Translations under genes and position numbers: made by a program
Shown here: piece by piece, positions 7,246-51,897 of the stretch
Layout of the letters: each line of letters opens with the position of its first letter
Numbering within the stretch: position 1 is the first letter of the stretch
DNA from: a virus
Taxonomy: Duplodnaviria; Caudoviricetes
IMG/VR virus record: IMGVR_UViG_3300020576_006124
Coordinates: 32,001 to 96,000 of that record
Direction: 5' to 3' (one strand)
DNA: 64,000 nucleotides
The notes under the pieces: model-generated
What the model was told of the DNA's origin: nothing
The model's database searches: none
The model's input: only the letters and a program-made list of their open reading frames with translations

Positions 7246-7557
7246 ATGGATTATTATTTTCCATCGAACATTAATGGAGAAGAATTAAAAAATCTTATCT
7301 TAACTGATGAAGATTTAAGAATACCTGTTTTATTCTCTAACAGCGTTCCGATGTTAATACCGAAAAATATATATTGTCACTATGAACAGACTGATCTAGA
7401 ACTTAAATGTCTAGCCTGCTCTCCTGTTCTTCCCCCAGATGGTAACTCATCTGTGAATATAAAGTATGTTCCTTACCATCAACTTAAAACTTTAGGAGCA
7501 GACTTAGCGTTATTTGGTCCCGATTTTTCTAGGCCAACCACCCTATTTTTAAGATAA
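7246..7557 (+). CDS. Hypothetical protein
   Basis: 103-aa ORF. Confidence 0.55.
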   Translation: MDYYFPSNINGEELKNLILTDEDLRIPVLFSNSVPMLIPKNIYCHYEQTDLELKCLACSPVLPPDGNSSVNIKYVPYHQLKTLGADLALFGPDFSRPTTLFLR

Positions 7558-7865
7558 TGAGTAAGGACTATAAAAAGATTTATGAAGAAAGAGCTGACTT
7601 TTTCCTGGAGGAAGCAGAAAAGTACATACAATGTTTTGAAGAACTAAAAACTTTAGAATATCAAATAGATTCTTCTCTATCTTCTTTAGGCTACTCCTCT
7701 TATTCAGAACTAGGAAAGAACGAACTAGAAAGAAAATCTAGCTTGAGATCCTTACTCCCAAACGAGTGTGCTCGAATAGACATGCTAAGAGTAATATACG
7801 AGACTAGAAAAAATAAATTAGAAATATTAAAGTTTTATATAGAAACTTTAAGACCTCTTATCTAA
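7557..7865 (+). CDS. Hypothetical helical protein
   Basis: 102-aa ORF, TAATG overlap. Confidence 0.55.
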   Translation: MSKDYKKIYEERADFFLEEAEKYIQCFEELKTLEYQIDSSLSSLGYSSYSELGKNELERKSSLRSLLPNECARIDMLRVIYETRKNKLEILKFYIETLRPLI

Positions 7866-7870
7866 TAACT

Positions 7871-8170
7871 ATGAACAATACCCTTAATACCAATCACATC
7901 ACTGTCTCAAACGGCGTAATGTATCTAATGTCATCGTTTGCACAAAAGTACTTGAAGGCAACCTATACTCACTGTAAGGTAACAGCCTCTGACAACAACC
8001 TGACTATTACCTTCTCTGATAAGAAAATGACTGGCTATTTACCTGTTAGGGCCTATCCAAATAGATCTTCATACAGAATCCCAGTCGGTATGGTTTTAGC
8101 CTCTACTATGGGGTCGTCCTATAAGATGACTTCTAATACGGGAAGAACTTTTAAGTTCTCAGTTAGCTAA
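7871..8170 (+). CDS. Hypothetical beta-rich basic protein
   Basis: 99-aa ORF. Confidence 0.55.
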   Translation: MNNTLNTNHITVSNGVMYLMSSFAQKYLKATYTHCKVTASDNNLTITFSDKKMTGYLPVRAYPNRSSYRIPVGMVLASTMGSSYKMTSNTGRTFKFSVS

Positions 8171-8198
8171 CAAGGTTAAGGGGAAGAAAGAGATCACA

Positions 8199-9308
8199 CT
8201 AGATCTTTAGTACTCCCCTAAACTGATTTTCAAAAATCCAGTCGTTATCTAGCCTCTTTCTACTCTTTCTAAAAGAAATAAGAGAGTTACTAGAAATAAT
8301 TTCTACTATGGCCTTGCCACGACTTTCCTCTGATGTAAAATCACACAGAATGGTTTCGGGGGTTTTAAACTCTTGTACACATTCTATAGTTTCCTGAACT
8401 ACACAAGTTTGTTTACTGAGCATGGCTTCCATCCAAATAAGAGACATACTTTCACCAGCGGAGGAAAGTAGAAATAAATCACAGAAACTATTTACTTTCT
8501 CTACTATTTCTTTGGGTACTGAATTCCCTTTTTCAAAATAGTCATTTACAATAATAACCCTTATTTTACTTCTCTTTATTAAATCCCTTAACTCAGCCAA
8601 CTTTATAGGATCAGGGTAGGCTAAACTGAGCAATCCTAAACACTTCTTACCACTTTTAGATTGTAATTCTTCTAGGAATTTTATCCAAAGGCCTATTCTT
8701 TTCCCCCCACACAGCCTAACTGGATATTGACAAATATATTCATATTTCCAAAGATCTACCTCAGGAAATAACTTTACATCCTCTTTAAAGTTATAGATAG
8801 TTTTTATCTTACTCTCTGGAATTTTAAATCTAGATGTTAATTCTTCCCTATTTCCTGAGGAGGGAAATACATATTTAGATTTTGGAAATCGAGAAAAGCA
8901 TATGACTTCTGGGTAGGTTGCTATATAATCCTTACCAGGGGTAGAATGTACCCAATGATAAAACTGCTTCCCGTCTCTAGCCTCTAACAGGGCCGCAGCG
9001 TAGATAGAATAGTCTGGGAGAAATGCTATATCATGGGTCAGTATTTTATCTATCCCATTAAGGTAGGATTTTAAAATTAGACCAGTCTCAGTAATATATA
9101 TAGACTTATTTTGTTTATAATACCTATCAAAATACTTTACTTTGACATTTTTAGGGAGAAGGTTTTTGTCCTGAAAATCGCTTGTTGTTAAAAACAATAC
9201 TTCCTGACCCCTTCTACTTAGAACATCTAAAGTATTTTTTACTACCCCTGCTATAGAATAAGCCGGGTTTAAATCTCTCAAAGGAGCAACCAAAGCAATG
9301 CCTGACAT
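8199..9308 (-). CDS. GT-B glycosyltransferase (GT4-like)
   Basis: YHWVHS; PVRLCGGKRI; DLFLLSSAGESMSLIWMEAM (E-x7-E motif). Confidence 0.85.
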   Translation of the reverse strand: MSGIALVAPLRDLNPAYSIAGVVKNTLDVLSRRGQEVLFLTTSDFQDKNLLPKNVKVKYFDRYYKQNKSIYITETGLILKSYLNGIDKILTHDIAFLPDYSIYAAALLEARDGKQFYHWVHSTPGKDYIATYPEVICFSRFPKSKYVFPSSGNREELTSRFKIPESKIKTIYNFKEDVKLFPEVDLWKYEYICQYPVRLCGGKRIGLWIKFLEELQSKSGKKCLGLLSLAYPDPIKLAELRDLIKRSKIRVIIVNDYFEKGNSVPKEIVEKVNSFCDLFLLSSAGESMSLIWMEAMLSKQTCVVQETIECVQEFKTPETILCDFTSEESRGKAIVEIISSNSLISFRKSRKRLDNDWIFENQFRGVLKI

Positions 9309-9582
9309 GTTAGAAACTTCCTATGGTTTAAGAATCCAGTTTAAGTATATTCAAGATAGCACTGAAGCCTCCAGAATATACGGTAGATTAAGATATTTTT
9401 TTGTCGGAGCTAACAGAGAAAGGGAGATGTCTATTTTCTCTGAGTCCGAACTTGAAGAAATGTCTCAGAACCCCCAATCTATGAGCCTATCTCTTTACTA
9501 CGGTGATGATGCAGAGTTTAGGGATAAACTTAATGACTTTTTAAAAACTGAGCCCTCTGTAATAGCTACAGTAATTGATTAA
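9298..9582 (+). CDS. Hypothetical protein (likely start ATG 9307)
   Basis: Fills the gap between two minus-strand genes. Confidence 0.55.
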   Translation: MPDMLETSYGLRIQFKYIQDSTEASRIYGRLRYFFVGANREREMSIFSESELEEMSQNPQSMSLSLYYGDDAEFRDKLNDFLKTEPSVIATVID

Positions 9583-10072
9583 GCATCCTATTTTCTTTAA
9601 AGTAGTCATCTACTATTTTATCTGCTTCAGATTTATTCTTTACGTAAGAGATATTTATAATAAAAAGAGTTATACCTTTATTTATACAGAGATTTGATCT
9701 TATTTTATCATTCTTTTGAACTTTTTTTAAATTCTCCTTCCCATAGATATTTTCTCTATGAACAGGGCCATTAACCTCAATTGCTATTTTATATTTAGGG
9801 ATATAAATGTCTAGTTCATACCCTATTTGCTTTCTGTCGTTCTTAAAAATTCTTATATCCGGTCTAACTCTTTCTCTTATACTCTCATAGATAAACTCTT
9901 CTGATTTACTTCTAGTTGTTTTTTTAAAGTGGTGGACTTTTAAGAGACACGCATAACAACAAAAGTTCTCTTCAACCCACCAGAACTTTTTCTTTAGTGA
10001 TTTAGGGATATTAGTTTCTGAAGAAAAACTAATTTTACAAGAAGAACAAACTCGAATCATGACTCTTATCAA
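9566..10072 (-). CDS. Zn-finger + Vsr/EDxHD-like PD-(D/E)XK endonuclease, putative homing endonuclease
   Basis: CSSC..CCYAC; SKSEE; YELDIYIPKYKIAIEVNGPVH; DKIRSNLCINKGITL. Confidence 0.8.
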   Translation of the reverse strand: MIRVMIRVCSSCKISFSSETNIPKSLKKKFWWVEENFCCYACLLKVHHFKKTTRSKSEEFIYESIRERVRPDIRIFKNDRKQIGYELDIYIPKYKIAIEVNGPVHRENIYGKENLKKVQKNDKIRSNLCINKGITLFIINISYVKNKSEADKIVDDYFKENRMLNQLL

Positions 10073-11168
10073 ACAGATTTCTAGTCCCTCTCACATTTTA
10101 AATACGGAACTACCTAAAACTATTAGAGTAGGTAATGAAGAAATTTCAATTCCTCAATGCCTCTTACATAAGTCAGTACAGTTCTCTCTTACTAAAGAGG
10201 GGATTCTAGAAACTTGTTTTATTGCACCCACTCTAGCTTACCTTCTAAAAGCAGCCTCATCAGAATCCCCACAAAAAGACTTTCAACTAGCTAGAAAGTT
10301 TCTTCTTTCTGCTATTCAAGACCTAGTAGAAAGTCAGCTTATTTCTGGCAGAGTACACCAAGGATATATGGGATTGGTTCAAGTTAATTCCCATTTAGAC
10401 ACAAATAGAGTAGCCCTTTCTAAAAGAACCTGGGAAGTCCTTTGTGAAGAGAGTAAAAAATGGAAAGACTGTTCTAAGATTATAGCCATTAGGTATCCCA
10501 ATTTAGGGCCCAAAACTACTTCCGTCCTGGAACTTCAAATTATAGAGGACTCTCCTTTAGGACTATCATTTGGAGCTTCTGATGGTATTTTAGATGGAGT
10601 ATATGTACATCCTACTACAATAAAAGAGAATTTTGAGGGTGATGCAGATGGAGATACTTTATTTTTAATACCCTTTGAAAATAATGGGAGCTTTATTGCA
10701 CCCCTTGCAAATTCTAGATCTAATGATTTGTTTTTAACAGAGAATCTTAGAGAAGAAATGCTTAAGAAGTTTTCTAGGTGTGATAGGTCAGATTCTAGAC
10801 TTAGCAATCATCTTTCTACTTGCTTTGATCCAGGTCTGATTGGTCTTGCTACCTATATAGTTAGAAGCAGATTAAGGAGATATGCTACAGCCAATAAATG
10901 TACTCTTAAGAAAGCATGGGATGCGGTAGCTCCAGAGGGACTACAATTAATAGAATCTGTCATGGATCTTAAAAAAGGAAATATGACACCCCAACAAGTA
11001 GATTCTCTTGTTAAACAAATAGAAAAAGAGAGTCTTCAGGTTGCAACTATAAGAAATTCTGGGGATCCTTATCACTCACTTATTACATCTAGCACATTAC
11101 CAGAAAACTTCCCATTAGTTTATCCTACTCTTTCGTCATTTGTGGAGCAGGCTTTTGGAACCCATTAA
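10059..11168 (+). CDS. Two-barrel RNA polymerase catalytic subunit (beta-prime-like core)
   Basis: [29 protein letters not shown] aligns to beta-prime [44 protein letters not shown] corresponds to the DxDGD Mg site. Confidence 0.85.
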   Translation: [369 protein letters not shown]

Positions 11169-11430
11169 AATATTAGTATCTGGTACCTTTATTATGGGAG
11201 AGAATAATCCCATTTGCATTTGTGGTTGCCCCCTAGAGAAGTTTACTGGATTTATACCTAGTCAGCTCTCTATGAAAAATTCTAGGGAGGTTGACTTACT
11301 TTCTATCCCAAATGATCAGTTTTCAGGAGAAACCTTTTGCCCACTTTGCGAAAGGATTCATACGTATACTTTTGAGATTGACAGAAGCACATCTATTCCT
11401 TTTTTAAAAGCCACTCCACTAGAAAAATGA
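11140..11430 (+). CDS. Small Zn-ribbon protein, possible detached beta-prime Zn-binding domain
   Basis: CICG...CPLC; lies between the two RNAP core genes and overlaps both. Confidence 0.5.
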   Translation: MWSRLLEPIKILVSGTFIMGENNPICICGCPLEKFTGFIPSQLSMKNSREVDLLSIPNDQFSGETFCPLCERIHTYTFEIDRSTSIPFLKATPLEK

Positions 11431-12767
11431 AAATAGCAACCAGAAACCATTTTACCACAAACTTTGTTAGGGAAGTAGTATCTTACTCTGGTACGGATTA
11501 CTATGGAGTGGAAATTGCTATACCACCTGTTTTTACCTATGATCAAAAAGAATACACACTAGAGGCACCACAAAAGATTTTAACTTCTTACAAGTTTAAT
11601 CCATTTAAAGATACAGGAAAGTCTTATCATATCTTCAGAAAGTCATTCTATGAATCCCTCTCTAGATTTCCTAAATTAAACTTAGATAATCTGGGGAAGA
11701 AGCATACTCTAGCAGAGTTCCTTTACTCATCCATTGTTTATTTTAGGCCTACATCCACTTTCGAATCTTATCTTTCTAAGCTTCCTTTTTCTCAAAGGGG
11801 TGAAGAGTTATCTTCTACTCTTATTACCTTAGCGGATAAAATTAAAAAAGACTACTCTCTCTCTTTAGACCTCTGGGCTGTACCTAAAAGAGAAGTTGGT
11901 AGTCTTATCCATATATCAGATGAAAACGGTTATTCTAGAATATCAAAGTTAATTTCTTTTGGATACCATAAGACTTTTCCACAAGACAGAATAACCAGAG
12001 AATCTGGATCCTTGAAAGAGTCTTATCGGTACAATAATCCTAACCATTTGGGGTATAAGTTTAATGAAATTATTGCCCCCTACGTTACTATGCTGAAAGT
12101 AGCTGTTATTTTCCCTAGGGAGAATATGGCTGATGGGGGTGAGTTTTTCTCCTCTGCGATTCCTCATTTATCTACATCTTTTACTCGGGACCGAGAAGTA
12201 GATCTTTATTCTAAGGAATACCCTGAGTCTATCATAGATATAAATGTCTCTAGTACATCAATTTCTCTAAAAAGAGTTCTAAGGACTATTATAAATGAGA
12301 ATCAATATTTAATGGGTCCTCTAAGATTGGTTTTACCTGGAGGAGTAAAGGTTTGTGCAAGTTTTAATAATAACCAGGCCATAGATAAGAATAATCAACC
12401 AATTGATCTTCTACTAGATTATAGAACCTTTGTCTCTAAAGGGGCAGTAGGAACTTTAATGATGCTGCAAAAAGGATTAGGGATTTGCCCTACGGCGGAG
12501 GAAGCATTGGAGTATTTTAACTCAGGATTAAAAATGACTACTATAAAGATAGGAGCTGAAACCTTAAACGCCCTAGTAGGTCATTTACCTATTTTCAGAC
12601 CTAGTCAAAGTTACTTAACACTCAATAAGCCCGGAGTAGTAGGATTAGATATTATTTCTAGAATTGTAACGGATTCTTCTCTATATCCTCATAAAGAAAC
12701 AGAAAGAGACTACCAAGAACTCTCCAGACTTTACTCACAAATCAGAACCCATGAACTCATCAACTAA
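11427..12767 (+). CDS. Two-barrel RNA polymerase second subunit (beta-like core)
   Basis: [15 protein letters not shown] ~ [27 protein letters not shown] ~ [34 protein letters not shown] ~ [33 protein letters not shown] ~ TVGYMYMLKL. Confidence 0.8.
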   Translation: [446 protein letters not shown]

Positions 12768-14274
12768 GTCCGAAATCGTTTGTTTAGTCCCTGAGCTTTT
12801 ATTTGATCAGGCAGCGGGAATGTTAGAGAGAATTGCTTACTCTAACATTGCGGGGAACCCTGAGAGGCCCATTATTCCTCTTTTTGTAGCTCCCCCAGGA
12901 GTGGGAAAAAATGCTCTTATTAACGATCTTTTACGGAACCTAAACTCCGGACAGTTAAAAGAGAATATCATTAACTCTGGTGCAGTAAAAGCTGAAGATT
13001 ACAAAGAATGGGAGATCTTCCCCCTTAGAGTTAGCCAGAAAGATAATGTAGGTATTGCGGGGGCTTGTACAATTGTTAAGGATTCTGAGAATCAATCTTA
13101 CACCTATACTGCTCCTCCTGCCGGTTTTCCTCTTCTAAATAACCCCTCTTCCGCAAAAGGGAAAAACATCTTAATTGTCTTAGATGAGTTTGGGCAAGCA
13201 GTTCCTGCTGTTCAAAGTTTAGCCGCTAGTTATCTAGATGGAGAAATTGGGTCTGAGAGGTTTGATCCTTCTAGAGTTCTTTTAGTTATACTTACTAATG
13301 GAGTCAAAGATGGAGCGGCATCAAATATGATTCCAGCACAGATTAGAAATCGTGTAGTCATGTTCTCCCTTAAGCCAAGTATTGCCCAGTGGACTAGGGA
13401 TTTTGCTCTAAAAAATGGCATTCCAATCTCAGTTATCAGTTACCTAAACGAAAAGGGTAATTCTTATTTCTTTTTAGATACTCAGGAAGAACTAAAGAAG
13501 GTTGTAAATACCATGTCTCCCTTCCAGAGCCCTAGAAGTTGGACCACTTTTTCAAATTTGCTTTCTGCGTGTTATACTAATGAAAAACTGGAACATATTA
13601 TGTCCAAACATTGGGACTCAAAAATAAATCCAGCAGAGGATGCGGAACAAAACCTAATTAGAGCTATGGCTATAGGGGCGCTAGGTCTGGATAAGGGGAA
13701 TGATTTTATTACTTGGTTGATAGAGATATCCAAATTAGTAAGACTCTCTGATATTATTTCCGGCACCTCTAAAGATGCATCTCAAATTAGTAAAGAGAGC
13801 CATCAAAAAGTTCTATTCTATATATCCTATCAATTAAGGTCCTTTATTAATTCTATTGGGGCAGAGTTCCAGGAGTTTAGAAATTCCAAAACTGCTATAG
13901 ACCCCAAAAACCCTAATGAAGTTAGAGACCTATTTCAAGGATTTTTTAAGGGATCCGATCTAAGTACTTCAATAGACCGAGTATCTTTATGGATTATGGA
14001 CCTACTATCAAGAACTCCTAAAGATAACTTGTTTATTCTTATTCCTACTCTTAGCCTTATTTTACCTCCAACTAATCAGTTAGCTTATATGCCCATTTCC
14101 AACATTAACGAAGCTAGAAAGCTAGCTGCTTCATCAGAAACCGTAAAAAGAAATCTTGACTTTACTCTTTCTACCTGGCCAATGTCTTTTGTAGATTTAT
14201 ATAGCCTTTGTCAAGAAGGGGGAGAGAAAGATCATAATTTAGTCTTGAGTAAATACTCAAAAGAAACAAGATGA
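12751..14274 (+). CDS. MoxR-like AAA+ ATPase
   Basis: Walker A APPGVGKN, Walker B IVLDEF, sensor LTN, arginine finger QIRNR, SPRSW. Confidence 0.85.
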   Translation: MNSSTKSEIVCLVPELLFDQAAGMLERIAYSNIAGNPERPIIPLFVAPPGVGKNALINDLLRNLNSGQLKENIINSGAVKAEDYKEWEIFPLRVSQKDNVGIAGACTIVKDSENQSYTYTAPPAGFPLLNNPSSAKGKNILIVLDEFGQAVPAVQSLAASYLDGEIGSERFDPSRVLLVILTNGVKDGAASNMIPAQIRNRVVMFSLKPSIAQWTRDFALKNGIPISVISYLNEKGNSYFFLDTQEELKKVVNTMSPFQSPRSWTTFSNLLSACYTNEKLEHIMSKHWDSKINPAEDAEQNLIRAMAIGALGLDKGNDFITWLIEISKLVRLSDIISGTSKDASQISKESHQKVLFYISYQLRSFINSIGAEFQEFRNSKTAIDPKNPNEVRDLFQGFFKGSDLSTSIDRVSLWIMDLLSRTPKDNLFILIPTLSLILPPTNQLAYMPISNINEARKLAASSETVKRNLDFTLSTWPMSFVDLYSLCQEGGEKDHNLVLSKYSKETR

Positions 14275-15650
14275 AAGACACACTATCCAGATTCTTTCGA
14301 AGGGCGGGCGGATCTCCTGTTGTAGGAGCCGCTCTCTCTTTAAAGTGGGAAACCTCAGATATAGGAGGACCCCACCCCTTCTATATTAAAAAAGACTCTA
14401 TTATTACCAATCTTAGCTGGATAGCTAGAAAACCCACAGAGTCAGAAAAACTAAGGATAGAACAAACTCTTGCTTTTGCTGCTTATTTTTATATACTAGG
14501 GTTTTCGAAAAAAGAAAAAGGAACTCTTTTTCCTCATATAGCTTATTTATCTAAATATATTTCTACAGCTTTAATGGTATCTTTTGATCCCAACATTAAA
14601 TTTTTAATGTTAAACACCCCTAATGGACAAGAGGATTGTACTATAAATGGGACATTTTTTAAACCTTTGCAAGAAAAAGGTTTAAAAATAAGTCTTCCTG
14701 TAACTCTTAAAAAGAACCTACTATTAAATGTTAGCATGGAAGAAACTGTAGCTTCCATTAATCTTTCTGAGAAAGCTACATGGACCTACATTTATTCAAG
14801 TCTATGCCAGACATTTGACAGTGCTAAACTAGATGAGGACCTTAGAAATATCTTTATTATCCCAACAGAGAATGAAGATAGTGATCCAGACTCTGAGATT
14901 TGGAAAAATAATGTTCTTGTAAGTCTTGGTCAAGAAGAATTTACATCCGGTCAGGATGAGGAAAGAAAAAGCCAGATGACAAACTTCTTTTCTCAAATGA
15001 AAGGGGTTTGGGGTAGTCATTCTGACGGATTCTTAGATGTATTTGAAATCCCAGATCAAGAGACATCTTTTATTGATTTTAAAGATCTTCTATCTTCTAA
15101 TATAAAATCTAATCTTCATACTGATGGGGATTTTTCCTGGCAAGTAAAAAGACATGGAGAAAATTCTTCCATACCCTTAGAGCCAAGATTAATCGGAACA
15201 AAATTTAAGACTTTATTCTTTTGTACTGATACCTCTGGTTCTATGTCAAGAGAGGAGCTGATTGACTCAGCGTCTGAAACAAAGAACTTCCTTTCGTCTG
15301 ATGCTAAAACTAGTTTTATAAATATTCAATTTGATACTGATATTCAGCATGTAGCAGAATTTACCCCTTACGATTACATAGAACTCGACGATATCATTCC
15401 AAACGGTTTTAAGGGAAGAGGGGGAACTGATCTTAATAAGCTCTTTTTCTATATTGAAGATTACATCTATGATAATTCTTTATCTGTAGAAGATTTAGTA
15501 GTCGTAATCCATACAGACCTAGGTTTCGCAGTTCCTGTTGAACCTTCTTTTGGAGAAAAGATAGTTTGGGTAAGTAGATTTGAGAAGACTATGCCATATG
15601 GAACCCTTGTTCAAGTTAGAGACACGACCAAAATCCACGGGATTTATTAA
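14271..15650 (+). CDS. vWA-domain protein, partner of the MoxR ATPase
   Basis: MIDAS DTSGSMS, QFDTDI, GRGGTD, IHTD. Confidence 0.85.
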   Translation: MKDTLSRFFRRAGGSPVVGAALSLKWETSDIGGPHPFYIKKDSIITNLSWIARKPTESEKLRIEQTLAFAAYFYILGFSKKEKGTLFPHIAYLSKYISTALMVSFDPNIKFLMLNTPNGQEDCTINGTFFKPLQEKGLKISLPVTLKKNLLLNVSMEETVASINLSEKATWTYIYSSLCQTFDSAKLDEDLRNIFIIPTENEDSDPDSEIWKNNVLVSLGQEEFTSGQDEERKSQMTNFFSQMKGVWGSHSDGFLDVFEIPDQETSFIDFKDLLSSNIKSNLHTDGDFSWQVKRHGENSSIPLEPRLIGTKFKTLFFCTDTSGSMSREELIDSASETKNFLSSDAKTSFINIQFDTDIQHVAEFTPYDYIELDDIIPNGFKGRGGTDLNKLFFYIEDYIYDNSLSVEDLVVVIHTDLGFAVPVEPSFGEKIVWVSRFEKTMPYGTLVQVRDTTKIHGIY

Positions 15651-16290
15651 TACAGAGTACTTCTCCATTCCGGGATATTTACAACCTATATTAAAGTTCC
15701 CTAAAAACCACATTAATTATATAGTATCAGAGAATACGGAAGAAGCCACCTCTCTAGTTAATTATATACTAGAAAGATATCAGAACAGTATCCTGATAGG
15801 GTTTCAGATTAATAAAGACTTATACCCTGAAGAGTCTTTAATCTTCAACTATTCTTCTGAGGAAGAATTTACTTCTATGATTAGAGATATAGTCATGAAA
15901 GTAAAAGACTGTATTCTTTTAATTGATGGAATTCGGTTTCTTCCAATGAATTCTTTAAAACTTTTAAAGGCTTTAGGAATAACCGCAATAGTAGTTTCTT
16001 TGAAGGGAAGAAGAAAAATTTTTCTTGACGAAAATACCATTTTCATTAAAAGAAGAAAACTAATAAGTTACATACACCACCAAATCGGGTATATTGTACA
16101 AATAGATTCTATTTGGGGCTCTAAAAAACATTTTTTTGCTTTTTCTACTTTAAAACTCTCATCTTTCTATGATAACAATATTGAGTCTTATAGTAAAGGA
16201 GTAAGAAAGTTTGAAATAAACGGTAGAAAACTGTCCCTACTAAAATGTCTAATTTTGGAAAATTATAAAAACTATGATCACATTATCTAA
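15580..16290 (+). CDS. Hypothetical protein, possibly a degenerate P-loop fold
   Basis: Walker-B-like LLIDGI, no Walker A. Confidence 0.45.
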   Translation: MRRLCHMEPLFKLETRPKSTGFINTEYFSIPGYLQPILKFPKNHINYIVSENTEEATSLVNYILERYQNSILIGFQINKDLYPEESLIFNYSSEEEFTSMIRDIVMKVKDCILLIDGIRFLPMNSLKLLKALGITAIVVSLKGRRKIFLDENTIFIKRRKLISYIHHQIGYIVQIDSIWGSKKHFFAFSTLKLSSFYDNNIESYSKGVRKFEINGRKLSLLKCLILENYKNYDHII

Positions 16291-16543
16291 CGGAAAAGTC
16301 GTCCTTGAAACACAAGAGGGCAAGATTGAATTTGCTCCAGACAAAAGTCTGCAGACTATACATGTTCATGCCGAAGTAGATACTACTACTGGTAAGATTG
16401 TTAGTTATTCTCTTTCTCCTGGTAGTCAGAAAGAAATTATCGAAGAGGTTACTAAGGAGTCTACGAAATCAAAGGATACAGGGGCTAAGAAAGTCTCTGA
16501 GGAGACGGTAAGGGAAAATGATAGTCCAACAACTTCATCTTAA
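16274..16543 (+). CDS. Hypothetical protein
   Basis: 89-aa ORF overlapping both neighbours. Confidence 0.55.
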   Translation: MITLSNGKVVLETQEGKIEFAPDKSLQTIHVHAEVDTTTGKIVSYSLSPGSQKEIIEEVTKESTKSKDTGAKKVSEETVRENDSPTTSS

Positions 16544-16925
16544 CTTTATAAAGGACGGAGAAGACCATTATTCTGTAACTGTGCAACAGCCTGACGGATC
16601 CTTTAAAGTAGTTCCTGTAAGGGTGCCCTCTGGCTCCAGTCTGGATTTAATTCCAGCACTTGCATCAGAGGCGGTTTCTAGTCTAGATAAAGCTATCCCA
16701 GACTTATTTACTAGCTTAAAAGAGCTCTCATCTATAGATCTTTCCTCTATAGATGAAAAGTATGAAAAGAGTGTCTTAGGAAATCCGATCTCTAATCCAT
16801 TGAAAGCTAAAGTGGAGGAACTGGTAGGAAAGTTACAATGGCCAGCCATTAGGAACTTAGAAACTTATACTAATAAAGAAGCTATCGTACTACTAAAACT
16901 CTTACAGATTAAACTAGGAGAATAA
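16518..16925 (+). CDS. Hypothetical protein
   Basis: 135-aa ORF. Confidence 0.55.
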   Translation: MIVQQLHLNFIKDGEDHYSVTVQQPDGSFKVVPVRVPSGSSLDLIPALASEAVSSLDKAIPDLFTSLKELSSIDLSSIDEKYEKSVLGNPISNPLKAKVEELVGKLQWPAIRNLETYTNKEAIVLLKLLQIKLGE

Positions 16926-16927
16926 GA

Positions 16928-17221
16928 ATGACAGTTTGTTTACAGGCTGTATGTCAAGTAATTAATAATAATTACTTTCTGAAGGATTTGGATACTGGAG
17001 AAAGGTATCCAGCAGTCTTCTTAGAAGAGATTACTCCAGGAACAGAGGGACTATTCATAGGAACCTTCTGTTCCGGAATAGTCAACGTCTCCAAAAGAGA
17101 TGTGAGAGAATTTATTAATCCTTTTTACGAGGAGGATGTAATCTTACTCGGCTCCGAATTTTTTGCTGAGAACACCCTTCCATTTGATTTAACTACACTA
17201 TATGAAACTATCCCCTCTTGA
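16928..17221 (+). CDS. Hypothetical protein
   Basis: 97-aa ORF upstream of the helicase. Confidence 0.55.
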   Translation: MTVCLQAVCQVINNNYFLKDLDTGERYPAVFLEEITPGTEGLFIGTFCSGIVNVSKRDVREFINPFYEEDVILLGSEFFAENTLPFDLTTLYETIPS

Positions 17222-18275
17222 AACTTTTGAAAAAGCCAAAGGGAACTTATCTAATGCTATTATAGGGGAGCTTGAAAAGGCCAGAATAGCTTTTTCTAAA
17301 AGAAGTGGTCCCTACCTAAAATGGTTTCCAGATATTGATCCAGATGATAACGCCCTAGTCTTTCCCTCTCTTTATGGAGATGATAAAAATACTGTAACTA
17401 AAAGTCTAGTAGACTTTACAGAAGGTTTAGGGGTTATAGCTGGAAATCCTAATGCAGGTAAAAGTTCGGTAATAATCTCCCTTATTCATGGCCTACTATC
17501 CCAACAAAATGATGTAGTCGTAGTAGATATATCTTATGATGATGGCTACTCCTACAGATATTTACAACACCTTTGTTTTCTTACAGGTCTTGTGTATAGT
17601 GAGGTTAGTAACTATTCTCTTCTAAGCCCAGAAAAGAAACAGGTTTACGACAAAGCTGATAAGCACCTAAAATCCATAATTCAAAGTGAAACATTCTATC
17701 TTTTTGGTCCTAGTTTAAAAGTTGATACTGAAGAAAGACCTATAACTCTCAGGGTTGATCAGCTTAGCCACATCCCCTCTTTATTTACTTTTCTTCGAAA
17801 GATCCATCCAGATAAAAAAATAGTAGTCTTTATCGACGCTCTTAATGATATAGTATTTGACAGTGTAGCCAACTCAGATCTAACCAAAGATGACATGGTC
17901 ATCACTACACTCTCCAAATCCTGCATAGAGAACAAACTTGTCTGTATGCTGAGTACCCATTTAAGGAAAAACAAAGACGATATTTCCATCGAGGATATTA
18001 AAGGATCCAAAACTTTAGAGTATGCAACTAAGGTTGTATACCTCGTTAGAAACATGAGAAGAGAGGGGGTAGAAAATTGTCCTAAGGTAAACATTAATGG
18101 CTATCTAATAGACCCTCTTATACTCCAAGTAGCTAAATCGAAAGTCTCTAGTTTCCAGACCAATATAGTTTTTGGGATAGATAGTTCAAGATGTAGACTT
18201 TATCCTGTAACTTTAGAGGACTACAATAAGGTTAATAAGGACTTTTATAATTATCTTAAGTATAAAACAAAATGA
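17202..18275 (+). CDS. DnaB-like SF4 replicative helicase
   Basis: AGNPNAGKSS; VFIDAL; STHLRK; IEDIKGSKTLEYATKVVYL ~ LSDLRESGSIEQDADVIMF. Confidence 0.85.
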   Translation: MKLSPLETFEKAKGNLSNAIIGELEKARIAFSKRSGPYLKWFPDIDPDDNALVFPSLYGDDKNTVTKSLVDFTEGLGVIAGNPNAGKSSVIISLIHGLLSQQNDVVVVDISYDDGYSYRYLQHLCFLTGLVYSEVSNYSLLSPEKKQVYDKADKHLKSIIQSETFYLFGPSLKVDTEERPITLRVDQLSHIPSLFTFLRKIHPDKKIVVFIDALNDIVFDSVANSDLTKDDMVITTLSKSCIENKLVCMLSTHLRKNKDDISIEDIKGSKTLEYATKVVYLVRNMRREGVENCPKVNINGYLIDPLILQVAKSKVSSFQTNIVFGIDSSRCRLYPVTLEDYNKVNKDFYNYLKYKTK

Positions 18276-19312: not shown

Positions 19313-19686
19313 AAGAGGCCTTAAATACACCCATCAAAAGCAGTGTTCTGGATTCAACTGCTACCTTAGAGGGGGATACTTACATTGCTAATGAGGGCGT
19401 ACTAGCTCTTCAAATAAAAGGACAATCTCCTGAGTCTGGCTTTATTGAGTTTATTGCTAAGCAAGAATTATACAAAGATAGTCCAGAAGGTAAAGAAAGT
19501 GAAATAGTTTTAGCCCTAAACAAACCCCTATTTATTAGATCTATGGGAATTTTACTTAATCCTGAAATTAAGATTCTTAAGTTTGAAATTTATGCAAATT
19601 TAACTATTTGCATTGCTAACCTTTGTTACTCTATACCTGAAAATCTGGTATCCGAACTTTTAACCAAGATAGATAGTGCGTTTTGA
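19270..19686 (+). CDS. Hypothetical protein
   Basis: 138-aa ORF. Confidence 0.55.
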   Translation: MEEENGIAAIIANIEEALNTPIKSSVLDSTATLEGDTYIANEGVLALQIKGQSPESGFIEFIAKQELYKDSPEGKESEIVLALNKPLFIRSMGILLNPEIKILKFEIYANLTICIANLCYSIPENLVSELLTKIDSAF

Positions 19687-20605
19687 CTATCATTTAATTG
19701 AATATGAGCTAGGGTCTATAGTCAATAATTCTTCCCACGCTGACAATATCAAAATAAAATGTAATCATTGTGATAAGAAAGCCCTCTACTTAAAATCAGA
19801 CACACTTCAATATAACTGCTTTGGTTGTGGCAGGCATGGAAAATTAGCTCTTGACTCCCCAAGTACTCCTACCAAAAAAGAGATTGATCAAGGATTACAG
19901 ATAAAGATCTTACTTTATCTCATAAAAAACTCAGAGTTATCCCAAGAGCACTCCTTAGAGTTACTAGAAAGAAGAATCTTTAGACCTAATAGATTCTTAC
20001 TTAGGTCTATACCCTTTAATGTTTCGAAGATTCTCTCAGAGAAATTCTCTTCTAGAGAACTTAGATCCGCTGGACTCCTAAATGAAGGAGGAAATCTAAT
20101 ATCCCAGTTCTCATATGGGAATCTACTTATACCCTTTATAAGCCAGGGAGTAATAAAGGGATTCCAAGTAAAGATAAACAAAAGGGACACATCTGACAAA
20201 TTCAAGTACCTTATGTTTCCGGGGTCTAAGGTAGGTCACCATTTCTATACTACTCTCCCCTCAGCCCCAAATAACTACATTATAGTTACAGAATCACCTC
20301 TTAAAACTATATCAGCTTTAGATAATGGATACAACTGTGCTGGGTTTGTAGGCATAAATCCTGCAGACAAAGCTATATTAGATCTTAAGCAGTTTCTCTT
20401 TAGATCGAAATGTAACACCTATTTAATCTATGATTCATCAGAATCTGACTTAGTAGATTCAAATCTGAGATCTGCTCAGGAAAGATTTATTCTTAATTTA
20501 GGGAGAAAAGTACAGATAAAATCCCTCCCACTATTAAAATACTCTAAGATGGATTTAGATAAATATCTTTTTATAAAAGGCAACTTAGATGATATTATCA
20601 CATAG
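19676..20605 (+). CDS. DNA primase (Zn finger + TOPRIM)
   Basis: CNHC...YNCFGCGRHG; FKYL; IVTESPLK; LIYD; KMDLDKY. Confidence 0.8.
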   Translation: MRFDYHLIEYELGSIVNNSSHADNIKIKCNHCDKKALYLKSDTLQYNCFGCGRHGKLALDSPSTPTKKEIDQGLQIKILLYLIKNSELSQEHSLELLERRIFRPNRFLLRSIPFNVSKILSEKFSSRELRSAGLLNEGGNLISQFSYGNLLIPFISQGVIKGFQVKINKRDTSDKFKYLMFPGSKVGHHFYTTLPSAPNNYIIVTESPLKTISALDNGYNCAGFVGINPADKAILDLKQFLFRSKCNTYLIYDSSESDLVDSNLRSAQERFILNLGRKVQIKSLPLLKYSKMDLDKYLFIKGNLDDIIT

Positions 20606-20618
20606 GAGATAAGTCCCC

Positions 20619-20855
20619 ATGGAAAATAACTTAGAAAAAAAGCCCTTAAGTTGCCCCCACTGCAAAAGCAAAGATACTGTTTTATCAACTGATGGAGAAA
20701 TGTGGTGGGGCGCCTGTTGGGATTGTCAAATGGAAGGACCCATAGTTGAAACTGACTTAGAGGCCCTTAAAACTTGGAATAATCTTTCTCAGTTAAGATC
20801 TTTTAAAGATAACATTCAAAAAAAAATCTTAGATAACAAAATCAGAGAACTTTAG
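20619..20855 (+). CDS. Lar-like Zn-ribbon protein (restriction alleviation family)
   Basis: PLSCPHCKS...CWDCQMEGP...EALKTWN. Confidence 0.65.
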   Translation: MENNLEKKPLSCPHCKSKDTVLSTDGEMWWGACWDCQMEGPIVETDLEALKTWNNLSQLRSFKDNIQKKILDNKIREL

Positions 20856-20877
20856 GTTTTGGTCTTAGGAGAATAGC

Positions 20878-21177
20878 ATGAGGGAGAACAGGACATTGAG
20901 GTCGGGAGAACCATGCCGACACCCTGGGTGCCTAAGTCACATTTCGCACTCTTGCGAGTGCTGTGGGCGCGTAGGTGGGAGAAGCCTACGAGACCTTTTG
21001 CTGCATGAACGGGTTGATGTTAGGTGGTACGGTCAAAATGACTACTTGGGGCCATATGTATTCGAGGTGGACCTACATGAAGGCGACGTATTTTGTTCGC
21101 AGGGGCTCATTGTTGGGTCTATTCGCGACGTGGCCTCATGGCGATTACATGTGCCAAAAGAGCTGGCGGACCTATGA
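20878..21177 (+). CDS. Hypothetical protein, Cys/His-rich N-terminus and D-V-x-S-W-R C-terminal domain
   Basis: AGGAG RBS; CRHPGCLSHISHSCECCG. Confidence 0.6.
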   Translation: MRENRTLRSGEPCRHPGCLSHISHSCECCGRVGGRSLRDLLLHERVDVRWYGQNDYLGPYVFEVDLHEGDVFCSQGLIVGSIRDVASWRLHVPKELADL

Positions 21178-21263
21178 CGAGCAGGAACAAACGCCTACCC
21201 CATGTAAGACCAGGACGCTGGGCCGCGTTTGGGTCAAGCCCCTGGGAGTGAGAAGAAAGAACG

Positions 21264-22193
21264 ATGAATATTGGAACAAGTTGGCATAGCTACCCAAAGA
21301 TTTACAACGTAGGCCACGCCTATCTGGAAGGTTTTTTTGATGGATCGTCCTGGTTGTCGGTTGAAGAAAAGGTAGATGGATCACAGTTTAGCTTTGGTGT
21401 ATTCGGGGGCGAGATTAAGTGTCGCTCGAAAGGCCAGGAATTGATTGTTGAGCGTCCCGAAAAGATGTTTGCCCGCGCGGTGGAGTCTGTCAAAGAGATT
21501 GCCCATCTGCTTCGGGATGGTTGGACCTATCGGGGTGAGTATCTACAATCCCCCAAGCACAACACTCTCAAGTATGATCGCGTGCCGAACCTACACATCA
21601 TCGGTTTCGACGTGTCTCCCACCGAAGAGCAATATTTGATCTACGATGACAAAACTGAGGAGTTTGCTCGTATCGGGCTTGAGGTTGTTCCTCGCATCTG
21701 GCAAGGCACGCACCCTGACCCCAAATCTCTCATGGATACCGAGAGCATTCTCGGCGGATCGAAGATTGAGGGGCTTGTGTTCAAGCGACATGCGAACCCA
21801 CTGTACGGGCCCGACAAAAAGGTGTTGCTTGCCAAGCACGTTTCGGAGGCGTTCAAGGAGGTCCATAGCAAGGAGTGGAAGAGAACTAACCAGACCGGAA
21901 AGGACTTCGTGGGCGCTCTTGCCGAACGGTATTGCGCTGAGGGCCGATGGGCCAAAGCCGTCCAGCGGCTCACGGAATCAGGCGTGGCGACGAACACACC
22001 ACAAGACATTGCAGCACTGATCGCTGAGGTTCAGCGTGACATTAAAGATGAGTGCCGCGAAGAGATCATCAAAGAGTTACTTTCCTATGCCTGGCCCCAT
22101 ATTGCCCGAGCATCTGTGCGCGGTTTGCCGGACTGGTACAAGAACCGACTCATGGAATCCGCCATTGGGTCCATGCCCCAGGAGGTCGAATGA
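21264..22193 (+). CDS. ATP-dependent RNA ligase (Rnl2-like)
   Basis: Motif I EEKVDGSQ, GEY, IGFDV, EGLVFK, AKHVSEAFKE; helical C-terminal domain. Confidence 0.85.
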   Translation: MNIGTSWHSYPKIYNVGHAYLEGFFDGSSWLSVEEKVDGSQFSFGVFGGEIKCRSKGQELIVERPEKMFARAVESVKEIAHLLRDGWTYRGEYLQSPKHNTLKYDRVPNLHIIGFDVSPTEEQYLIYDDKTEEFARIGLEVVPRIWQGTHPDPKSLMDTESILGGSKIEGLVFKRHANPLYGPDKKVLLAKHVSEAFKEVHSKEWKRTNQTGKDFVGALAERYCAEGRWAKAVQRLTESGVATNTPQDIAALIAEVQRDIKDECREEIIKELLSYAWPHIARASVRGLPDWYKNRLMESAIGSMPQEVE

Positions 22194-22483
22194 AGATCAC
22201 CGTCCGCCAGGCATTCAAGAAGGCGTATGGGCCGATCCCAGATGGGGCTACGTGCCATTTGGCAAACTGGCCCGGTCCTACTTTGCCCCAATTTATGAAC
22301 ATTGAGCCTACCATATGGGAAGACGGCTGGCCTGAATCCCTGGGAACACGCGAGGACGGTAGCCCTGGAGTAATGGAATATCCCTTTGGCCCCGACATCT
22401 CAGATCGCGACGCAGAAGCCTTCCGGGGTTTATTCGGGGACGATTACGACAAAGCCCTAGATGGGCTGTTGGGGGCTGAATGA
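22190..22483 (+). CDS. Hypothetical protein (true start likely ATG 22190)
   Basis: GGAGG RBS and ATGA overlap with the ligase stop. Confidence 0.6.
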   Translation: MKITVRQAFKKAYGPIPDGATCHLANWPGPTLPQFMNIEPTIWEDGWPESLGTREDGSPGVMEYPFGPDISDRDAEAFRGLFGDDYDKALDGLLGAE

Positions 22484-22713
22484 CTTGGTCCGAGGCGATT
22501 GCCACTTTGGGGGTGGTTGGTCTATTTGGACTCCTTGTATGGACAAGCCACAGGGAGAACATGGCAAGATATGCTCTCTTACAGAAGACCGTGGAACTAG
22601 AGGAGATATTGAAGGATGCACCAAAGCAGGTGAGCGTCGGCAAGAAGTGCATCGCACGAGGAGTGATACGCAAAGTAGCACCACCGGTAACATTGGAGGA
22701 TGAGAATGTCTAA
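22480..22713 (+). CDS. Small protein with an N-terminal transmembrane helix
   Basis: AIATLGVVGLFGLLVW; ATGA overlap. Confidence 0.6.
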   Translation: MTWSEAIATLGVVGLFGLLVWTSHRENMARYALLQKTVELEEILKDAPKQVSVGKKCIARGVIRKVAPPVTLEDENV

Positions 22714-22721
22714 GCAGAGTG

Positions 22722-22741
22722 TGGAGGTGCCCCGTGGCTAA
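22722..22741 (+). repeat. 20-bp direct repeat, copy 1 (RBS + GTG start + upstream stop)
   Basis: tggaggtgccccgtggctaa. Confidence 0.9.
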
Positions 22742-22967
22742 ACACGACCTCAAGATCAGGCAGATCACCGCTGTAAGCGTTCCAGAGAACTGCTTTACGC
22801 AATGCGAGGCGATCCTATTTGCCTTGACCGACGATGGCAGGCTCTTTCACACAACCAACAGGGACATGGGGGCCGTTTGGTACGAGGTAGGGCAGCCTTA
22901 CCTGACGGTCGATGAAAGAGACGCCATAGCCCCCCTCATGGCTGAGCTGGAGGTGCCCCGTGGCTAA
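22734..22967 (+). CDS. Hypothetical protein bounded by the direct repeats
   Basis: GGAGG then GTG 22734, MAKHDLKIRQ...EVPRG. Confidence 0.6.
   Translation: MAKHDLKIRQITAVSVPENCFTQCEAILFALTDDGRLFHTTNRDMGAVWYEVGQPYLTVDERDAIAPLMAELEVPRG
22948..22967 (+). repeat. 20-bp direct repeat, copy 2
   Basis: tggaggtgccccgtggctaa. Confidence 0.9.
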
Positions 22968-23121
22968 GAAGCTGTACGGGCAAGTCGGGCGCAACGGGGA
23001 GTTGCATTGGGTGGAAGCCTCTTCCGCTAAGTGGATCGCCGGGAGAATGTGGTTTGTGTACAATGCCCCCAACTGGGTCTTTTCCTATGAGAGTCCTGGG
23101 GGCTTTATACACTTTTCATAA
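22960..23121 (+). CDS. Small ORF crossing the island's right boundary, possibly truncated or chimeric
   Basis: GGAGG + GTG 22960, MAKKLYGQVGRNGELHW...; runs from GC-rich into AT-rich DNA. Confidence 0.4.
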   Translation: MAKKLYGQVGRNGELHWVEASSAKWIAGRMWFVYNAPNWVFSYESPGGFIHFS

Positions 23122-23323
23122 TAAGTACTCCTGGAAGTGTTATCAACTAACACCAAAAATCCTTAGTTCTACTCAGAAGTTAAAACTAAATATTAATGGA
23201 GAATGCCAAAACGGAGAAGTAGTTAGCACAGAAGGGATTTTCAAGATCATTACTGATGGAAATTTGCTCTTATCCCCTGAAGATATTGAATCTTGGAGAC
23301 TTGTTTTTTCTTCTACGACTTAA
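23054..23323 (+). CDS. Hypothetical protein with D-I-x-S-W-R C-terminal domain
   Basis: IITDGNLLLSPEDIESWRL; true start may be the downstream ATG (MRVLG). Confidence 0.55.
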   Translation: MCTMPPTGSFPMRVLGALYTFHNKYSWKCYQLTPKILSSTQKLKLNINGECQNGEVVSTEGIFKIITDGNLLLSPEDIESWRLVFSSTT

Positions 23324-23381
23324 CCACTAAAAAGTAGTGTAAAAATTTAGAGGATTTCTTATACTTCTACAGAACCGGAAA

Positions 23382-23918
23382 ATGGAAATTAAATCAAAGC
23401 ATTTATCTAAGGTAAAGGACCCAGGAATTCTCTCTCTTATTTATTTGTCTCTAGGTGTATTAGAAAAAAGCTTAGAAACAGACTCCTACCTTAAAGAGAC
23501 TGGTTTTTTAATTAGAGATTACCGATATATTGGGACTAGATTAATCTACAAAAATTGCCATATAGCAGAGAGAAAATCTATTGGATGGGTGCTTTTACCT
23601 AAAATTAACAAGATCTTATTTGACATCTGTAAAGATCTAGGTTTATATAAATATTTTAACCCCGAGCGAACTTTCCTAAGAAATTTTTTAAATTCTATAA
23701 TCCAGTTCAGCATATTACATAATTGGAACTCTCCCACTACCTTTTTAGATTCTATAGAACCAGGAGATTACATAGAAATAAAAACTGAAGAGAGATCCTA
23801 TAACGTTACCGTCCTAAGGGAAAGTATAGAAATGGAATTCATCCTCACTGATGAAAATATCATTCTTCAGCTCCAAGACATCGTTTCATGGAGAAAAATT
23901 TATGTTCGACCCAAATAA
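23382..23918 (+). CDS. Hypothetical protein, paralog of 25345..25866
   Basis: DLGLYKYF...ILTDENIILQLQDIVSWRKIYV. Confidence 0.7.
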   Translation: MEIKSKHLSKVKDPGILSLIYLSLGVLEKSLETDSYLKETGFLIRDYRYIGTRLIYKNCHIAERKSIGWVLLPKINKILFDICKDLGLYKYFNPERTFLRNFLNSIIQFSILHNWNSPTTFLDSIEPGDYIEIKTEERSYNVTVLRESIEMEFILTDENIILQLQDIVSWRKIYVRPK

Positions 23919-24462
23919 ATTATGGTTTACCTCTGATACTCATTTTGGACATAGAGGGATTCTTAAACATCAGCAGACTAGATCACACTTTTCCTCTCTA
24001 GAGGAAATGGATGAGACACTTATTTTTAATTGGAATAGTCGGGTTAAGCCTGGGGATTGTATCTTTCATTTAGGGGATTTTTTTCTGTGTTCTTCTGATC
24101 GAGCTAAATCTATTCTGTCTAGATTGAATGGAGAAATACATCTAATTGAGGGTAATCACGACTCAAATGCCCATACTTTAAGAAAAAAATTAGCCAGCTA
24201 TAGACAGATAGCTGAAGTAAACGTTGATGACCCAGACAGGAAAGTGTGTATTATCTGCTGCCACTACTGTATGAGAACCTGGAACAAATCACACCACGGT
24301 TCTTGGCATATTCACGGGCACTCTCATGGGTCTCTACAGCGGCCTGAGGGACCTGTTCTAGATGTAGGAGTAGACTGCCATAATCTTTCCCCTATTTCGT
24401 ACTGGGAACTGAAAGAATTTATGCTGGGAAGAACATTCCCCATAGTAGATCATCACAAATAG
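23902..24462 (+). CDS. Calcineurin-like metallophosphoesterase
   Basis: SDTHFGH, HLGDF, EGNHD, HGHSH; likely start MFDPNK. Confidence 0.9.
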   Translation: MFDPNKLWFTSDTHFGHRGILKHQQTRSHFSSLEEMDETLIFNWNSRVKPGDCIFHLGDFFLCSSDRAKSILSRLNGEIHLIEGNHDSNAHTLRKKLASYRQIAEVNVDDPDRKVCIICCHYCMRTWNKSHHGSWHIHGHSHGSLQRPEGPVLDVGVDCHNLSPISYWELKEFMLGRTFPIVDHHK

Positions 24463-51481: not shown

Positions 51482-51897
51482 ATAGGATTATGTATAAAAA
51501 CCAGGGGGAATTCTATTACCTCAGTCTCTAATTTTGGGGATTCACTTTTGTCGCATTCAAATCTAGCCCTTATTACTTGGCAAGTCTTAGTTTCACAGTA
51601 ACCATAGATATCCTTAGATGAGAACCAAACCCAATCGGATGTTTCCCCTAAGTTTGAGACAATATCGTAGTAACCCCTTAGTAGAATTTCTGCAGACTTA
51701 GAATGTGAAACTATTGGGTAATCCGGCTCCAAAACTACAAGGGACCATTCTTCCTCAGGCTCCGGCCAGCATCCTATAACATCTTTAGGTTTTAGGCTAA
51801 TCCTTAAGTTATTGTTATTATAGAAAAGTAGTATTTCTTTTTTAGCAATTTCATTCTTAGAGGTAACTCTTACCTTTCTTTTATACTCTATAGGCAT
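51478..51897 (-). CDS. Hypothetical protein
   Basis: 139-aa ORF. Confidence 0.55.
   Translation of the reverse strand: MPIEYKRKVRVTSKNEIAKKEILLFYNNNNLRISLKPKDVIGCWPEPEEEWSLVVLEPDYPIVSHSKSAEILLRGYYDIVSNLGETSDWVWFSSKDIYGYCETKTCQVIRARFECDKSESPKLETEVIEFPLVFIHNPI

Follow-up and report, generated by a model that had tools for sequence, protein, structure and literature searches.

How little of a cellular RNA polymerase can suffice a virus that transcribes its own genes? Two-barrel RNA polymerases (RNAPs) transcribe all cellular genomes, and both their minimal beta/beta-prime content and the form of the ancestral enzyme remain debated. The question is raised by a locus of three plus-strand genes in a 64-kb stretch of phage DNA (the window, whose numbering is used below unless the genome is named), corresponding to bases 32001-96000 of the 197,239-base IMG/VR viral record IMGVR_UViG_3300020576_006124. 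ORF1 (10059-11168; ATG start, 369 amino acids [aa]) and ORF3 (11427-12767; ATG start, 446 aa), both confirmed open reading frames, flank the small ORF2 (11140-11430; TTG start, 96 aa, or 78 aa from an internal ATG at 11194), whose stop overlaps the start of ORF3. Together the three encode 911 aa, of which the two putative catalytic chains, ORF1 and ORF3, account for 815. An earlier note on this DNA had read the locus as a split, much reduced two-barrel polymerase, and the structural models bear this out in that both match only RNAP large subunits. We consider it likely, with a probability of roughly 70%, that ORF1 and ORF3 are the catalytic subunits of a cellular-type two-barrel polymerase which, with ORF2 as a third subunit, serves as a DNA-dependent RNAP for phage genes. 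The phage would then probably carry out its own transcription, using an enzyme roughly a third as large as is usual.

ORF1 resembles the beta-prime/Rpb1 subunit in fold and in the order of its motifs. Its AlphaFold2 model, built from the family alignment of 26 members (20-60% identity), has a predicted local distance difference test score (pLDDT) of 84.9 and comprises an N-terminal beta/alpha region, an Mg-binding double-psi barrel and C-terminal helices. A Foldseek search of the PDB returned at least 355 matches at E <= 1e-3; all 50 of those listed are RNAP largest subunits, and the top match among them is the beta-prime N-terminal chain of the AR9 non-virion RNAP (nvRNAP; 7s00_d, 1.9e-6). 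With VIA-align, 272 residues of the model (25-369) superimpose on Pol I A190 357-1645 at Z 11.0, and the ORF1 alignments cover Rpb1 from about residue 35 to about 1420. In BFVD the top match is the 433-aa LEF-9 of a nudivirus (E 1.3e-7). Separately, the highest query-normalised template modelling (TM) score to the ORF1 model, 0.36, belongs to two uncharacterised large BFVD proteins, A0A172Q021_2 (Acinetobacter phage vB_AbaM_ME3) and A0A075BUT7_2 (Microcystis phage MaMV-DC), which may themselves be hidden, unannotated two-barrel polymerases.

Barrel A of ORF1 (10356-10682, plus strand; residues ~100-208) can be recognized on its own, as isolated double-psi beta-barrel domains (Cdc48/p97 N, PEX1 N and designed proteins) align to residues 100-208 with Z 8-10 and a root-mean-square deviation of 2-3 A. 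Within it stand, in the order the earlier note had listed, RYPNLGP (R145, P147), HP (184-185) and FEGDADGD. The last of these contains the predicted catalytic metal loop D195-A-D197-G-D199 (10641-10655, plus strand), whose three aspartates are kept in 26/26 family members, as are P147 and L149, while R145 is kept in 25. In a single hhalign comparison, ORF1 179-203 aligned with E. coli beta-prime 445-468 (E 0.027), placing the Asp triad on D460/D462/D464 of NADFDGD; the beta-prime target had to be cut to residues 330-480, since full-length beta-prime gave only a spurious N-terminal match. Before the barrel, GRVHQGYMG resembles, to the eye, the switch 2 segment GRFRQNLLG of E. coli beta-prime.

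ORF3 supplies the complementary half. Its model (pLDDT 69.9) gave at least 303 Foldseek matches in the PDB at E <= 1e-3, and 50 of the 50 listed are second-largest RNAP subunits. VIA-align superimposes 350 of its residues on E. coli beta 126-1243 (Z 13.8), and ESM Atlas clusters carrying Pfam Rpb2_6 match it with TM-scores of 0.55-0.61 by query. As modelled, ORF3 is a compacted form of the conserved beta core. Isolated double-psi domains align to its barrel B (12075-12611, plus strand; residues ~217-395) as they do to barrel A, so that both double-psi barrels expected from the sequence are indeed predicted. Between D236 and R300 lies a beta insert of about 60 residues, with strands at 250-290 in the model; the beta barrel of cellular-type enzymes carries an inserted sandwich-barrel hybrid motif (SBHM) 'flap' domain (PMC7824862). 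The beta motifs singled out by the earlier note are likewise present in the nine-member ORF3 family: D236 of NMAD and K308 of PGGVK are invariant (9/9), and position 300, where an Arg had been proposed to replace the first conserved Lys, is R in seven members and K in two, always exactly 8 residues before K308. Motif order and the E. coli sequence make D236 (12132-12134, plus strand), the predicted fourth catalytic Asp, the equivalent of Rpb2 D837 and E. coli beta D814. The basic pair R300 to K308 (12324-12350, plus strand) corresponds to Rpb2 K979/K987. A single hhalign comparison aligned ORF3 313-344 with E. coli beta 1081-1112 (E 0.012), a register that puts K308 on the GNKG Lys and R300 on the Lys eight residues upstream. 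By eye, DRITRE...NPNH of ORF3 resembles GGLTRE...HPTH of E. coli beta, and a segment ending in KP resembles a C-terminal beta motif.

Taken together, the two chains hold the residues that define the superfamily. Ruprich-Robert and Thuriaux (PMC2919709) found eight residues invariant in two-barrel RNAPs, namely Rpb1 R446, P448, D479, D481 and D483 and Rpb2 D837, K979 and K987. Counterparts of all eight are present, as R145, P147, D195, D197 and D199 in ORF1 and D236, R300 (Arg for Lys) and K308 in ORF3, and they are kept among family members down to 20-30% identity.

Which of the two clades of two-barrel RNAPs (PMC10770324) the enzyme falls into was addressed with a VIA-align search, run independently of Foldseek, of 48,161 PDB representative chains. 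At Z >= 8, ORF3 matched solely nine multisubunit beta/Rpb2 chains (plastid, vaccinia, AR9, Pol I, phiKZ, Pol IV, African swine fever virus, Xanthomonas and Pol III; Z 10.1-12.8), the next-best matches being crAss-like phi14:2 gp66 (5.3), RDR2 (5.2), QDE-1 (4.5) and P23-45 gp96 (4.0). For ORF1 the separation is weaker (8.1-10.1 versus 6.1-7.6), with Pol I at 10.1 and Pol II at 9.8 versus gp96 at 7.6, RDR2 at 7.3 and QDE-1 at 6.1. The DP2 subunit of PolD appeared in none of four VIA-align lists, which does not in itself exclude a relationship. By its predicted fold, the ORF1/ORF3 enzyme thus belongs to the cellular-type (multisubunit) clade and not to the clade of YonO and the RNA-dependent RNA polymerases (RdRPs). 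Its layout is that of neither phage type: beta and beta-prime of phiKZ and AR9 each come in an N- and a C-terminal piece, whereas each subunit here is one chain, and the enzyme takes up two genes, beta-prime-like before beta-like, which is not the arrangement of YonO, QDE-1 and the crAss-type enzymes. The earlier note had found the motifs after the barrel more like those of RdRP/YonO-type enzymes than those of bacterial beta-prime, a leaning that the fold scores do not support. Of its related idea of an enzyme mixing features of both types, one element survives, a missing glutamate before D236, which is the only real mixed feature we found.

Beyond the barrels, the ORF1 model has two long helices, at residues 259-279 and 283-306 (10833-10979, plus strand), in which T265, E299, D303 and K306 are invariant across the family. 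In several Pol II entries the alignment stops at model residues ~294-301, opposite Rpb1 ~1081-1103 in the trigger-loop region. From these end points, in an alignment that is not residue-level, we infer that helix 259-279 (IGxATYxxR) may be the bridge helix and helix 283-306 the first trigger-loop helix. GLIGLATY and ESVMDLKKG had been proposed earlier as these two elements; the end points fit that proposal. M302 and the invariant K306 stand four residues apart, as do M932 and H936 of E. coli, their presumed counterparts.

That such an enzyme escapes routine annotation, as had been anticipated, is plain from the sequence searches. Pfam and PHROG scans of ORF1-3 gave no family match even at E 1; RNA_pol_Rpb1_2 and RNA_pol_Rpb2_6 in particular stayed below the gathering threshold, with no match at E <= 1. 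The two chains are RNAP homologues by fold and motifs that lie outside current Pfam models. A tblastn search of ORF1-3 against 50,697 GenBank phage records found no match, the ORF1 family profile met only a chance match among PDB sequences, word-based protein searches recovered just three or four relatives per subunit, and a metagenome scan with the ORF3 alignment found no locus. HMMER, run exhaustively against 1.84 billion protein representatives, was more productive: it yielded 35 ORF1 relatives of 104-455 aa each, mostly on viral or metagenomic contigs of 76-240 kb. None of the 35 is a fused form, a count that concerns ORF1 only. We found no paper describing the family in the literature, although a list of 23 published families lay outside the comparison. 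Among 224 jumbo phages surveyed in PMC7824862, RNAPs occurred only in phiKZ-like phages and in two YonO-bearing phages.

Gene order ties the subunits together and lends indirect support to the predicted face-to-face packing of their barrels. In every locus read, spanning ten metagenomic lineages, the beta-prime-like gene precedes the beta-like gene. The two are neighbours, or separated only by a small gene, in the window, L001/L002, L004, L005, L006, L007, L009, L010, L011 and one further contig. L003 is the exception, its beta-prime-like gene being set apart from a Zn plus beta-like pair by six small ORFs. Because this order recurs across lineages, the division into separate genes goes back to the ancestor of the family and is no product of sequence assembly. 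A small gene with four cysteines intervenes in the window, L001/L002, L003, L004, L005, L007 and L009. Homologues of ORF2 thus hold the same position in six other lineages, and both Cys pairs are kept in all seven, which upholds the Zn ribbon noted earlier between the subunits; ORF2 is probably a small Zn-binding protein. The N-terminal match to the L001 homologue reaches past the ATG at 11194 on its upstream side, making TTG the likelier start. L006 has a small gene with just two cysteines, and L010, L011 and the further contig have none. In a complex prediction of ORF1, ORF3 and ORF2, with ORF2 as the scored partner, the score was 0.00, which is no evidence either way.

Downstream of ORF3, and overlapping its frame, lies a gene for a MoxR-like AAA+ ATPase (12751-14274, plus strand; phrog_1297 ATPase, 3.3e-38), itself overlapped by the frame of a VWA/DUF2201 protein (14271-15650, plus strand; PF09967, 7e-08). 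A MoxR-type homologue comes after the beta-like gene in five other lineages (L001, L003, L005, L009 and L010), three of which (L005, L009 and L010) also have a VWA homologue downstream. Judging by gene order, the MoxR-VWA pair may act as an assembly chaperone for the polymerase.

We propose the following mechanism, drawn largely from homology. ORF1 and ORF3 would form a heterodimer that synthesizes RNA on a DNA template, with the ORF1 barrel holding the catalytic Mg through D195/D197/D199 and the ORF3 barrel facing it, so that D236 would supply the second metal while R300 and K308 would touch the incoming nucleoside triphosphate and the RNA 3' end. Helices 259-279 and 283-306 of ORF1 would work as bridge helix and trigger-loop-like element, M302 and K306 taking the places of the bacterial Met and His. 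ORF2 would most likely be a small Zn-binding third subunit, and the MoxR-VWA pair would assist assembly. The enzyme would do without an alpha dimer, omega or sigma, and promoters would be recognized either through a phage factor or by the enzyme itself. The genes sit among replication and nucleotide-metabolism genes, which suggests a non-virion enzyme. Furthermore, the alignment of each chain to its cellular counterpart runs from one end to the other, and this makes the enzyme look whole but compressed, unlike half of a phiKZ-style four-piece core.

This interpretation builds on folds, conserved residues and gene order, and several observations weigh against it. In sequence, the ties to known RNAPs are weak: Pfam, PHROG and the PDB sequences gave no match, and the two hhalign matches to E. 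coli (E 0.01-0.03) are single comparisons over 24-32 residues. The ORF3 model has 92 residues under pLDDT 50 and derives from an alignment of just nine sequences, and the query-normalised TM-scores of ORF1 are low (0.2-0.3), which we attribute to the absence of most of beta-prime. ORF3 also lacks the Glu before D236, position 235 being Ala in three family members and Leu in six; this residue (Rpb2 E836, E. coli beta E813) is found in nearly all DNA-dependent enzymes and is absent in RdRP/YonO (PMC2919709). Some lineages have no ORF2, the gene order with MoxR-VWA may merely reflect shared ancestry of these phages, and further subunits are possible, as the record is only about 85% complete.

The first of these doubts to be weighed is whether the same fold might perform another task: priming replication, synthesizing DNA in the manner of PolD, or copying RNA templates as QDE-1 does. 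The two-barrel superfamily does include PolD and the RdRPs, and the loss of the Glu is an RdRP/YonO-type trait (PMC2919709). The DNA-metabolism genes around the locus (DnaB-like helicase, Holliday junction resolvase, PolA, RecA-like protein and ribonucleotide reductase [RNR]) would suit such a task, and two further DxDGD proteins in the genome could be the real transcriptases. Against this, the ORF3 fold scores Z 10-13 with multisubunit RNAPs and about 5 with QDE-1 and RDR2. The phage already encodes a family A DNA polymerase, and a priming role is made less likely by its DnaB-like helicase (17202-18275) and a weak DnaG-like primase candidate close by (19676-20605; Zn-ribbon_DnaG E 0.017, phrog_47 E 6.5e-4). 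Judged by eye, ORF1 also carries the switch-2-like GRVHQGYMG before barrel A. Switch 2 has been tied to DNA templates (PMC2919709). We therefore regard another task as unlikely.

Alternatively, ORF1 and ORF3 might be only the core of a larger enzyme, whose remaining subunits (a beta-prime C-terminal module, a beta N-terminal module or, as in the phiKZ/AR9 nvRNAPs, a specificity subunit) are too divergent to recognize or lie in the missing 15% or so of the genome; the enzyme would then not be minimal. The incompleteness of the record leaves room for this, many large neighbouring ORFs have no family match, and ORF2 and the MoxR-VWA pair travel with the polymerase genes. Enzymes of the phiKZ/AR9 type do carry extra phage-specific subunits, and chains of the AR9 and phiKZ nvRNAPs rank among the top matches in structure. 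The core is nevertheless covered from end to end, ORF1 spanning Rpb1 ~35-1420 and ORF3 spanning beta 126-1243. In addition, Pfam Rpb1_2, Rpb2_6 and the family profiles detected no further beta/beta-prime fragment and no paralogue of ORF1-3 in the 197-kb record, in agreement with the earlier claim of a near-minimal enzyme, which large extra fragments would have undercut. We consider a larger assembly somewhat less probable than another task. Least probable by far is a degenerate relic that no longer polymerizes and is kept for a structural or regulatory role: extreme reduction, the lost Glu and the Arg in place of one Lys might be expected of a relic, whereas conservation, at 20-30% identity, of the eight superfamily-invariant residues and of many further positions around the predicted active site would not. 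A cellular-type, DNA-dependent RNAP for phage genes therefore remains the interpretation we favour.

A more ambitious version of it is possible, though we hold it with considerable doubt. The enzyme might be the smallest cellular-type RNAP yet, self-sufficient in two or three chains (~815-910 aa), retaining the barrels, the bridge helix and a Lys-bearing trigger element while having discarded clamp helices, flap, alpha and omega; it might have a dedicated MoxR-VWA chaperone and be one of three unrelated two-barrel polymerases in the same phage. If so, a clade of jumbo phages would be fully independent of host RNAP, the other two enzymes being the DxDGD proteins mentioned above, both large and encoded outside the window, which emerged from a motif scan of the genome.

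The smaller of these, a 743-aa protein (genome 185902-188133; L020:7903-10134), has DCDGD at residues 97-101 and GFK...DKG near 591-634. Both family profiles align weakly with it by hhalign (metal loop E 0.09, GxK...KG segment E 0.07), beta-prime-like part first. Each of the two related phage records of 235-240 kb has a homologue, and L023, whose sequence includes the N-terminus, retains the motif as DSDGD. To judge from these motifs, the protein is a candidate for a second, single-chain two-barrel polymerase with reversed barrel order. The larger, of 1215 aa (genome 161132-164779; L018:16133-19780), has NDADGD, with DADGD at 197-201; it has no family match and no homologue in the two related 235-240 kb records. 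BLASTP between the two proteins gives only weak, though colinear, segments (best E 0.11). We regard them as candidate separate enzymes and not as missing pieces of ORF1/ORF3.

A GACTCTATT box lies 23 nt before the 1215-aa gene. Many structural genes, among them those for sheath, head and large virion proteins, have the extended form GACTCTATT(T/A) at a distance of 15-65 nt on their upstream side, for example at genome positions 105134, 128866, 142522, 146857, 149597 and 161105 on the minus strand and 161109 and 166993 on the plus strand, and the 8-mer ACTCTATT is enriched about 5.6-fold in intergenic DNA. In sequence, GACTCTATT(T/A) looks like a single-box late promoter. Because the box marks late structural genes, the 1215-aa candidate polymerase may be packaged in the virion.

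The wider genome is that of a myovirus distant from cultured phages. Across the record there are weak PHROG matches to tail sheath, portal, major head protein and an intein-bearing large terminase, and also a GroEL; in the window are genes for a family A DNA polymerase, a RecA-like protein, intein-containing RNR subunits, the DnaB-like helicase, an RNA ligase and two tRNAs. No sigma factor came to light: a Sigma70_r2 search across the 197-kb record had no match, and the protein at 51897-52550 has no sigma support from that search or from PHROGs, which does not disprove a sigma identity. A search of the record for T7-type RNAP found nothing, as did its control, and is hence uninformative. Scanning 7500-17500 for sigma-70 promoters and terminators gave background levels, with 27 promoter-like sites against 27.8 expected.

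Three other features of the record deserve mention. A homing/HNH-type endonuclease gene (9566-10072, minus strand; phrog_559, 1.3e-15) is arranged head to head with ORF1, whose start it overlaps, a layout also found in L001. Inteins split the large and small RNR subunits (42602-44833 and 48023-50056) and the large terminase (L018:9459-12608). Finally, the G+C content of 20001-24000 is 45%, against about 35% elsewhere, and this segment, which contains an RNA ligase-like gene (21264-22193) and ORFs overlapping on both strands, may be a foreign insert or hold structured RNA genes.

Our findings bear on how much of a two-barrel RNAP is needed for function. The kind of enzyme is already known, and many divergent phage families have been described; what the ORF1/ORF3 family would add is a conserved enzyme found in nature which, with about 815 residues, still falls into the cellular clade by its fold. 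It would define a minimal functional set consisting of the barrels, a switch-2-like segment, a bridge helix and a trigger element, and it would suit structure determination and the engineering of small orthogonal transcription systems. Host-independent transcription is perhaps commoner than annotated, as a separate group of uncultured myoviruses of ~200-240 kb carries a putative, unannotated RNAP.

Among known systems, the nvRNAPs of AR9/PBS2 and phiKZ (PDB 7s00, 7s01 and 7ogp) are likewise phage-encoded and cellular-type, with their catalytic barrels on separate chains, and chain C of AR9 and of phiKZ matches ORF3 with Z 12.1 and 11.9. They have no alpha or omega, which the present enzyme is predicted to lack as well. 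They differ in that their beta and beta-prime are split into N and C halves and joined by a fifth subunit, whereas here there are two chains of 369 and 446 aa, the beta-prime-like gene comes first and sequence similarity to AR9 and phiKZ is undetectable. Similarly reduced are LEF-9 (Rpb1-like) and LEF-8 (Rpb2-like) of baculoviruses and nudiviruses, which have been stripped down to little more than barrels, switch 2 and funnel (PMC2919709). The LEF enzyme belongs to insect viruses and has four subunits, including LEF-4 and p47, and nothing points to direct common descent. LEF-8 is roughly double ORF3 in size. The 982-aa Orf6 of the killer plasmid pGKL2, an Rpb2::Rpb1 fusion, is a cellular-clade RNAP in which about half of the coding sequence has been deleted (PMC2919709); it differs in being a single chain with the beta-like part first, in being borne by a eukaryotic plasmid and in being larger than ORF1 and ORF3 combined.

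YonO of SPbeta, phi14:2 gp66, P23-45 gp64/gp96 and QDE-1 also do without accessory cellular subunits and fall in a similar size range, and enzymes of the YonO/crAss/QDE-1 type share with ORF3 the loss of the Glu before the beta Asp. Unlike the present enzyme, they are single polypeptides with the beta-like barrel first, and in structure they are far more remote from ORF3 than the multisubunit chains are (Z 4.0-5.3 versus 10-13) and somewhat more remote from ORF1 (6.1-7.6 versus 8-10). Their size nonetheless qualifies the suggestion that the new enzyme is near-minimal: its core of about 815 aa is small indeed, but similar or smaller single-chain phage enzymes are known, as the active fragment of P23-45 gp96 (327-1124) has about 800 residues and a P23-45 protein of 616 aa, which we take to be gp64, matches ORF1 in BFVD. 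ORF1 and ORF3 thus do not make up the smallest two-barrel RNAP known, although they may make up the smallest of the cellular type.

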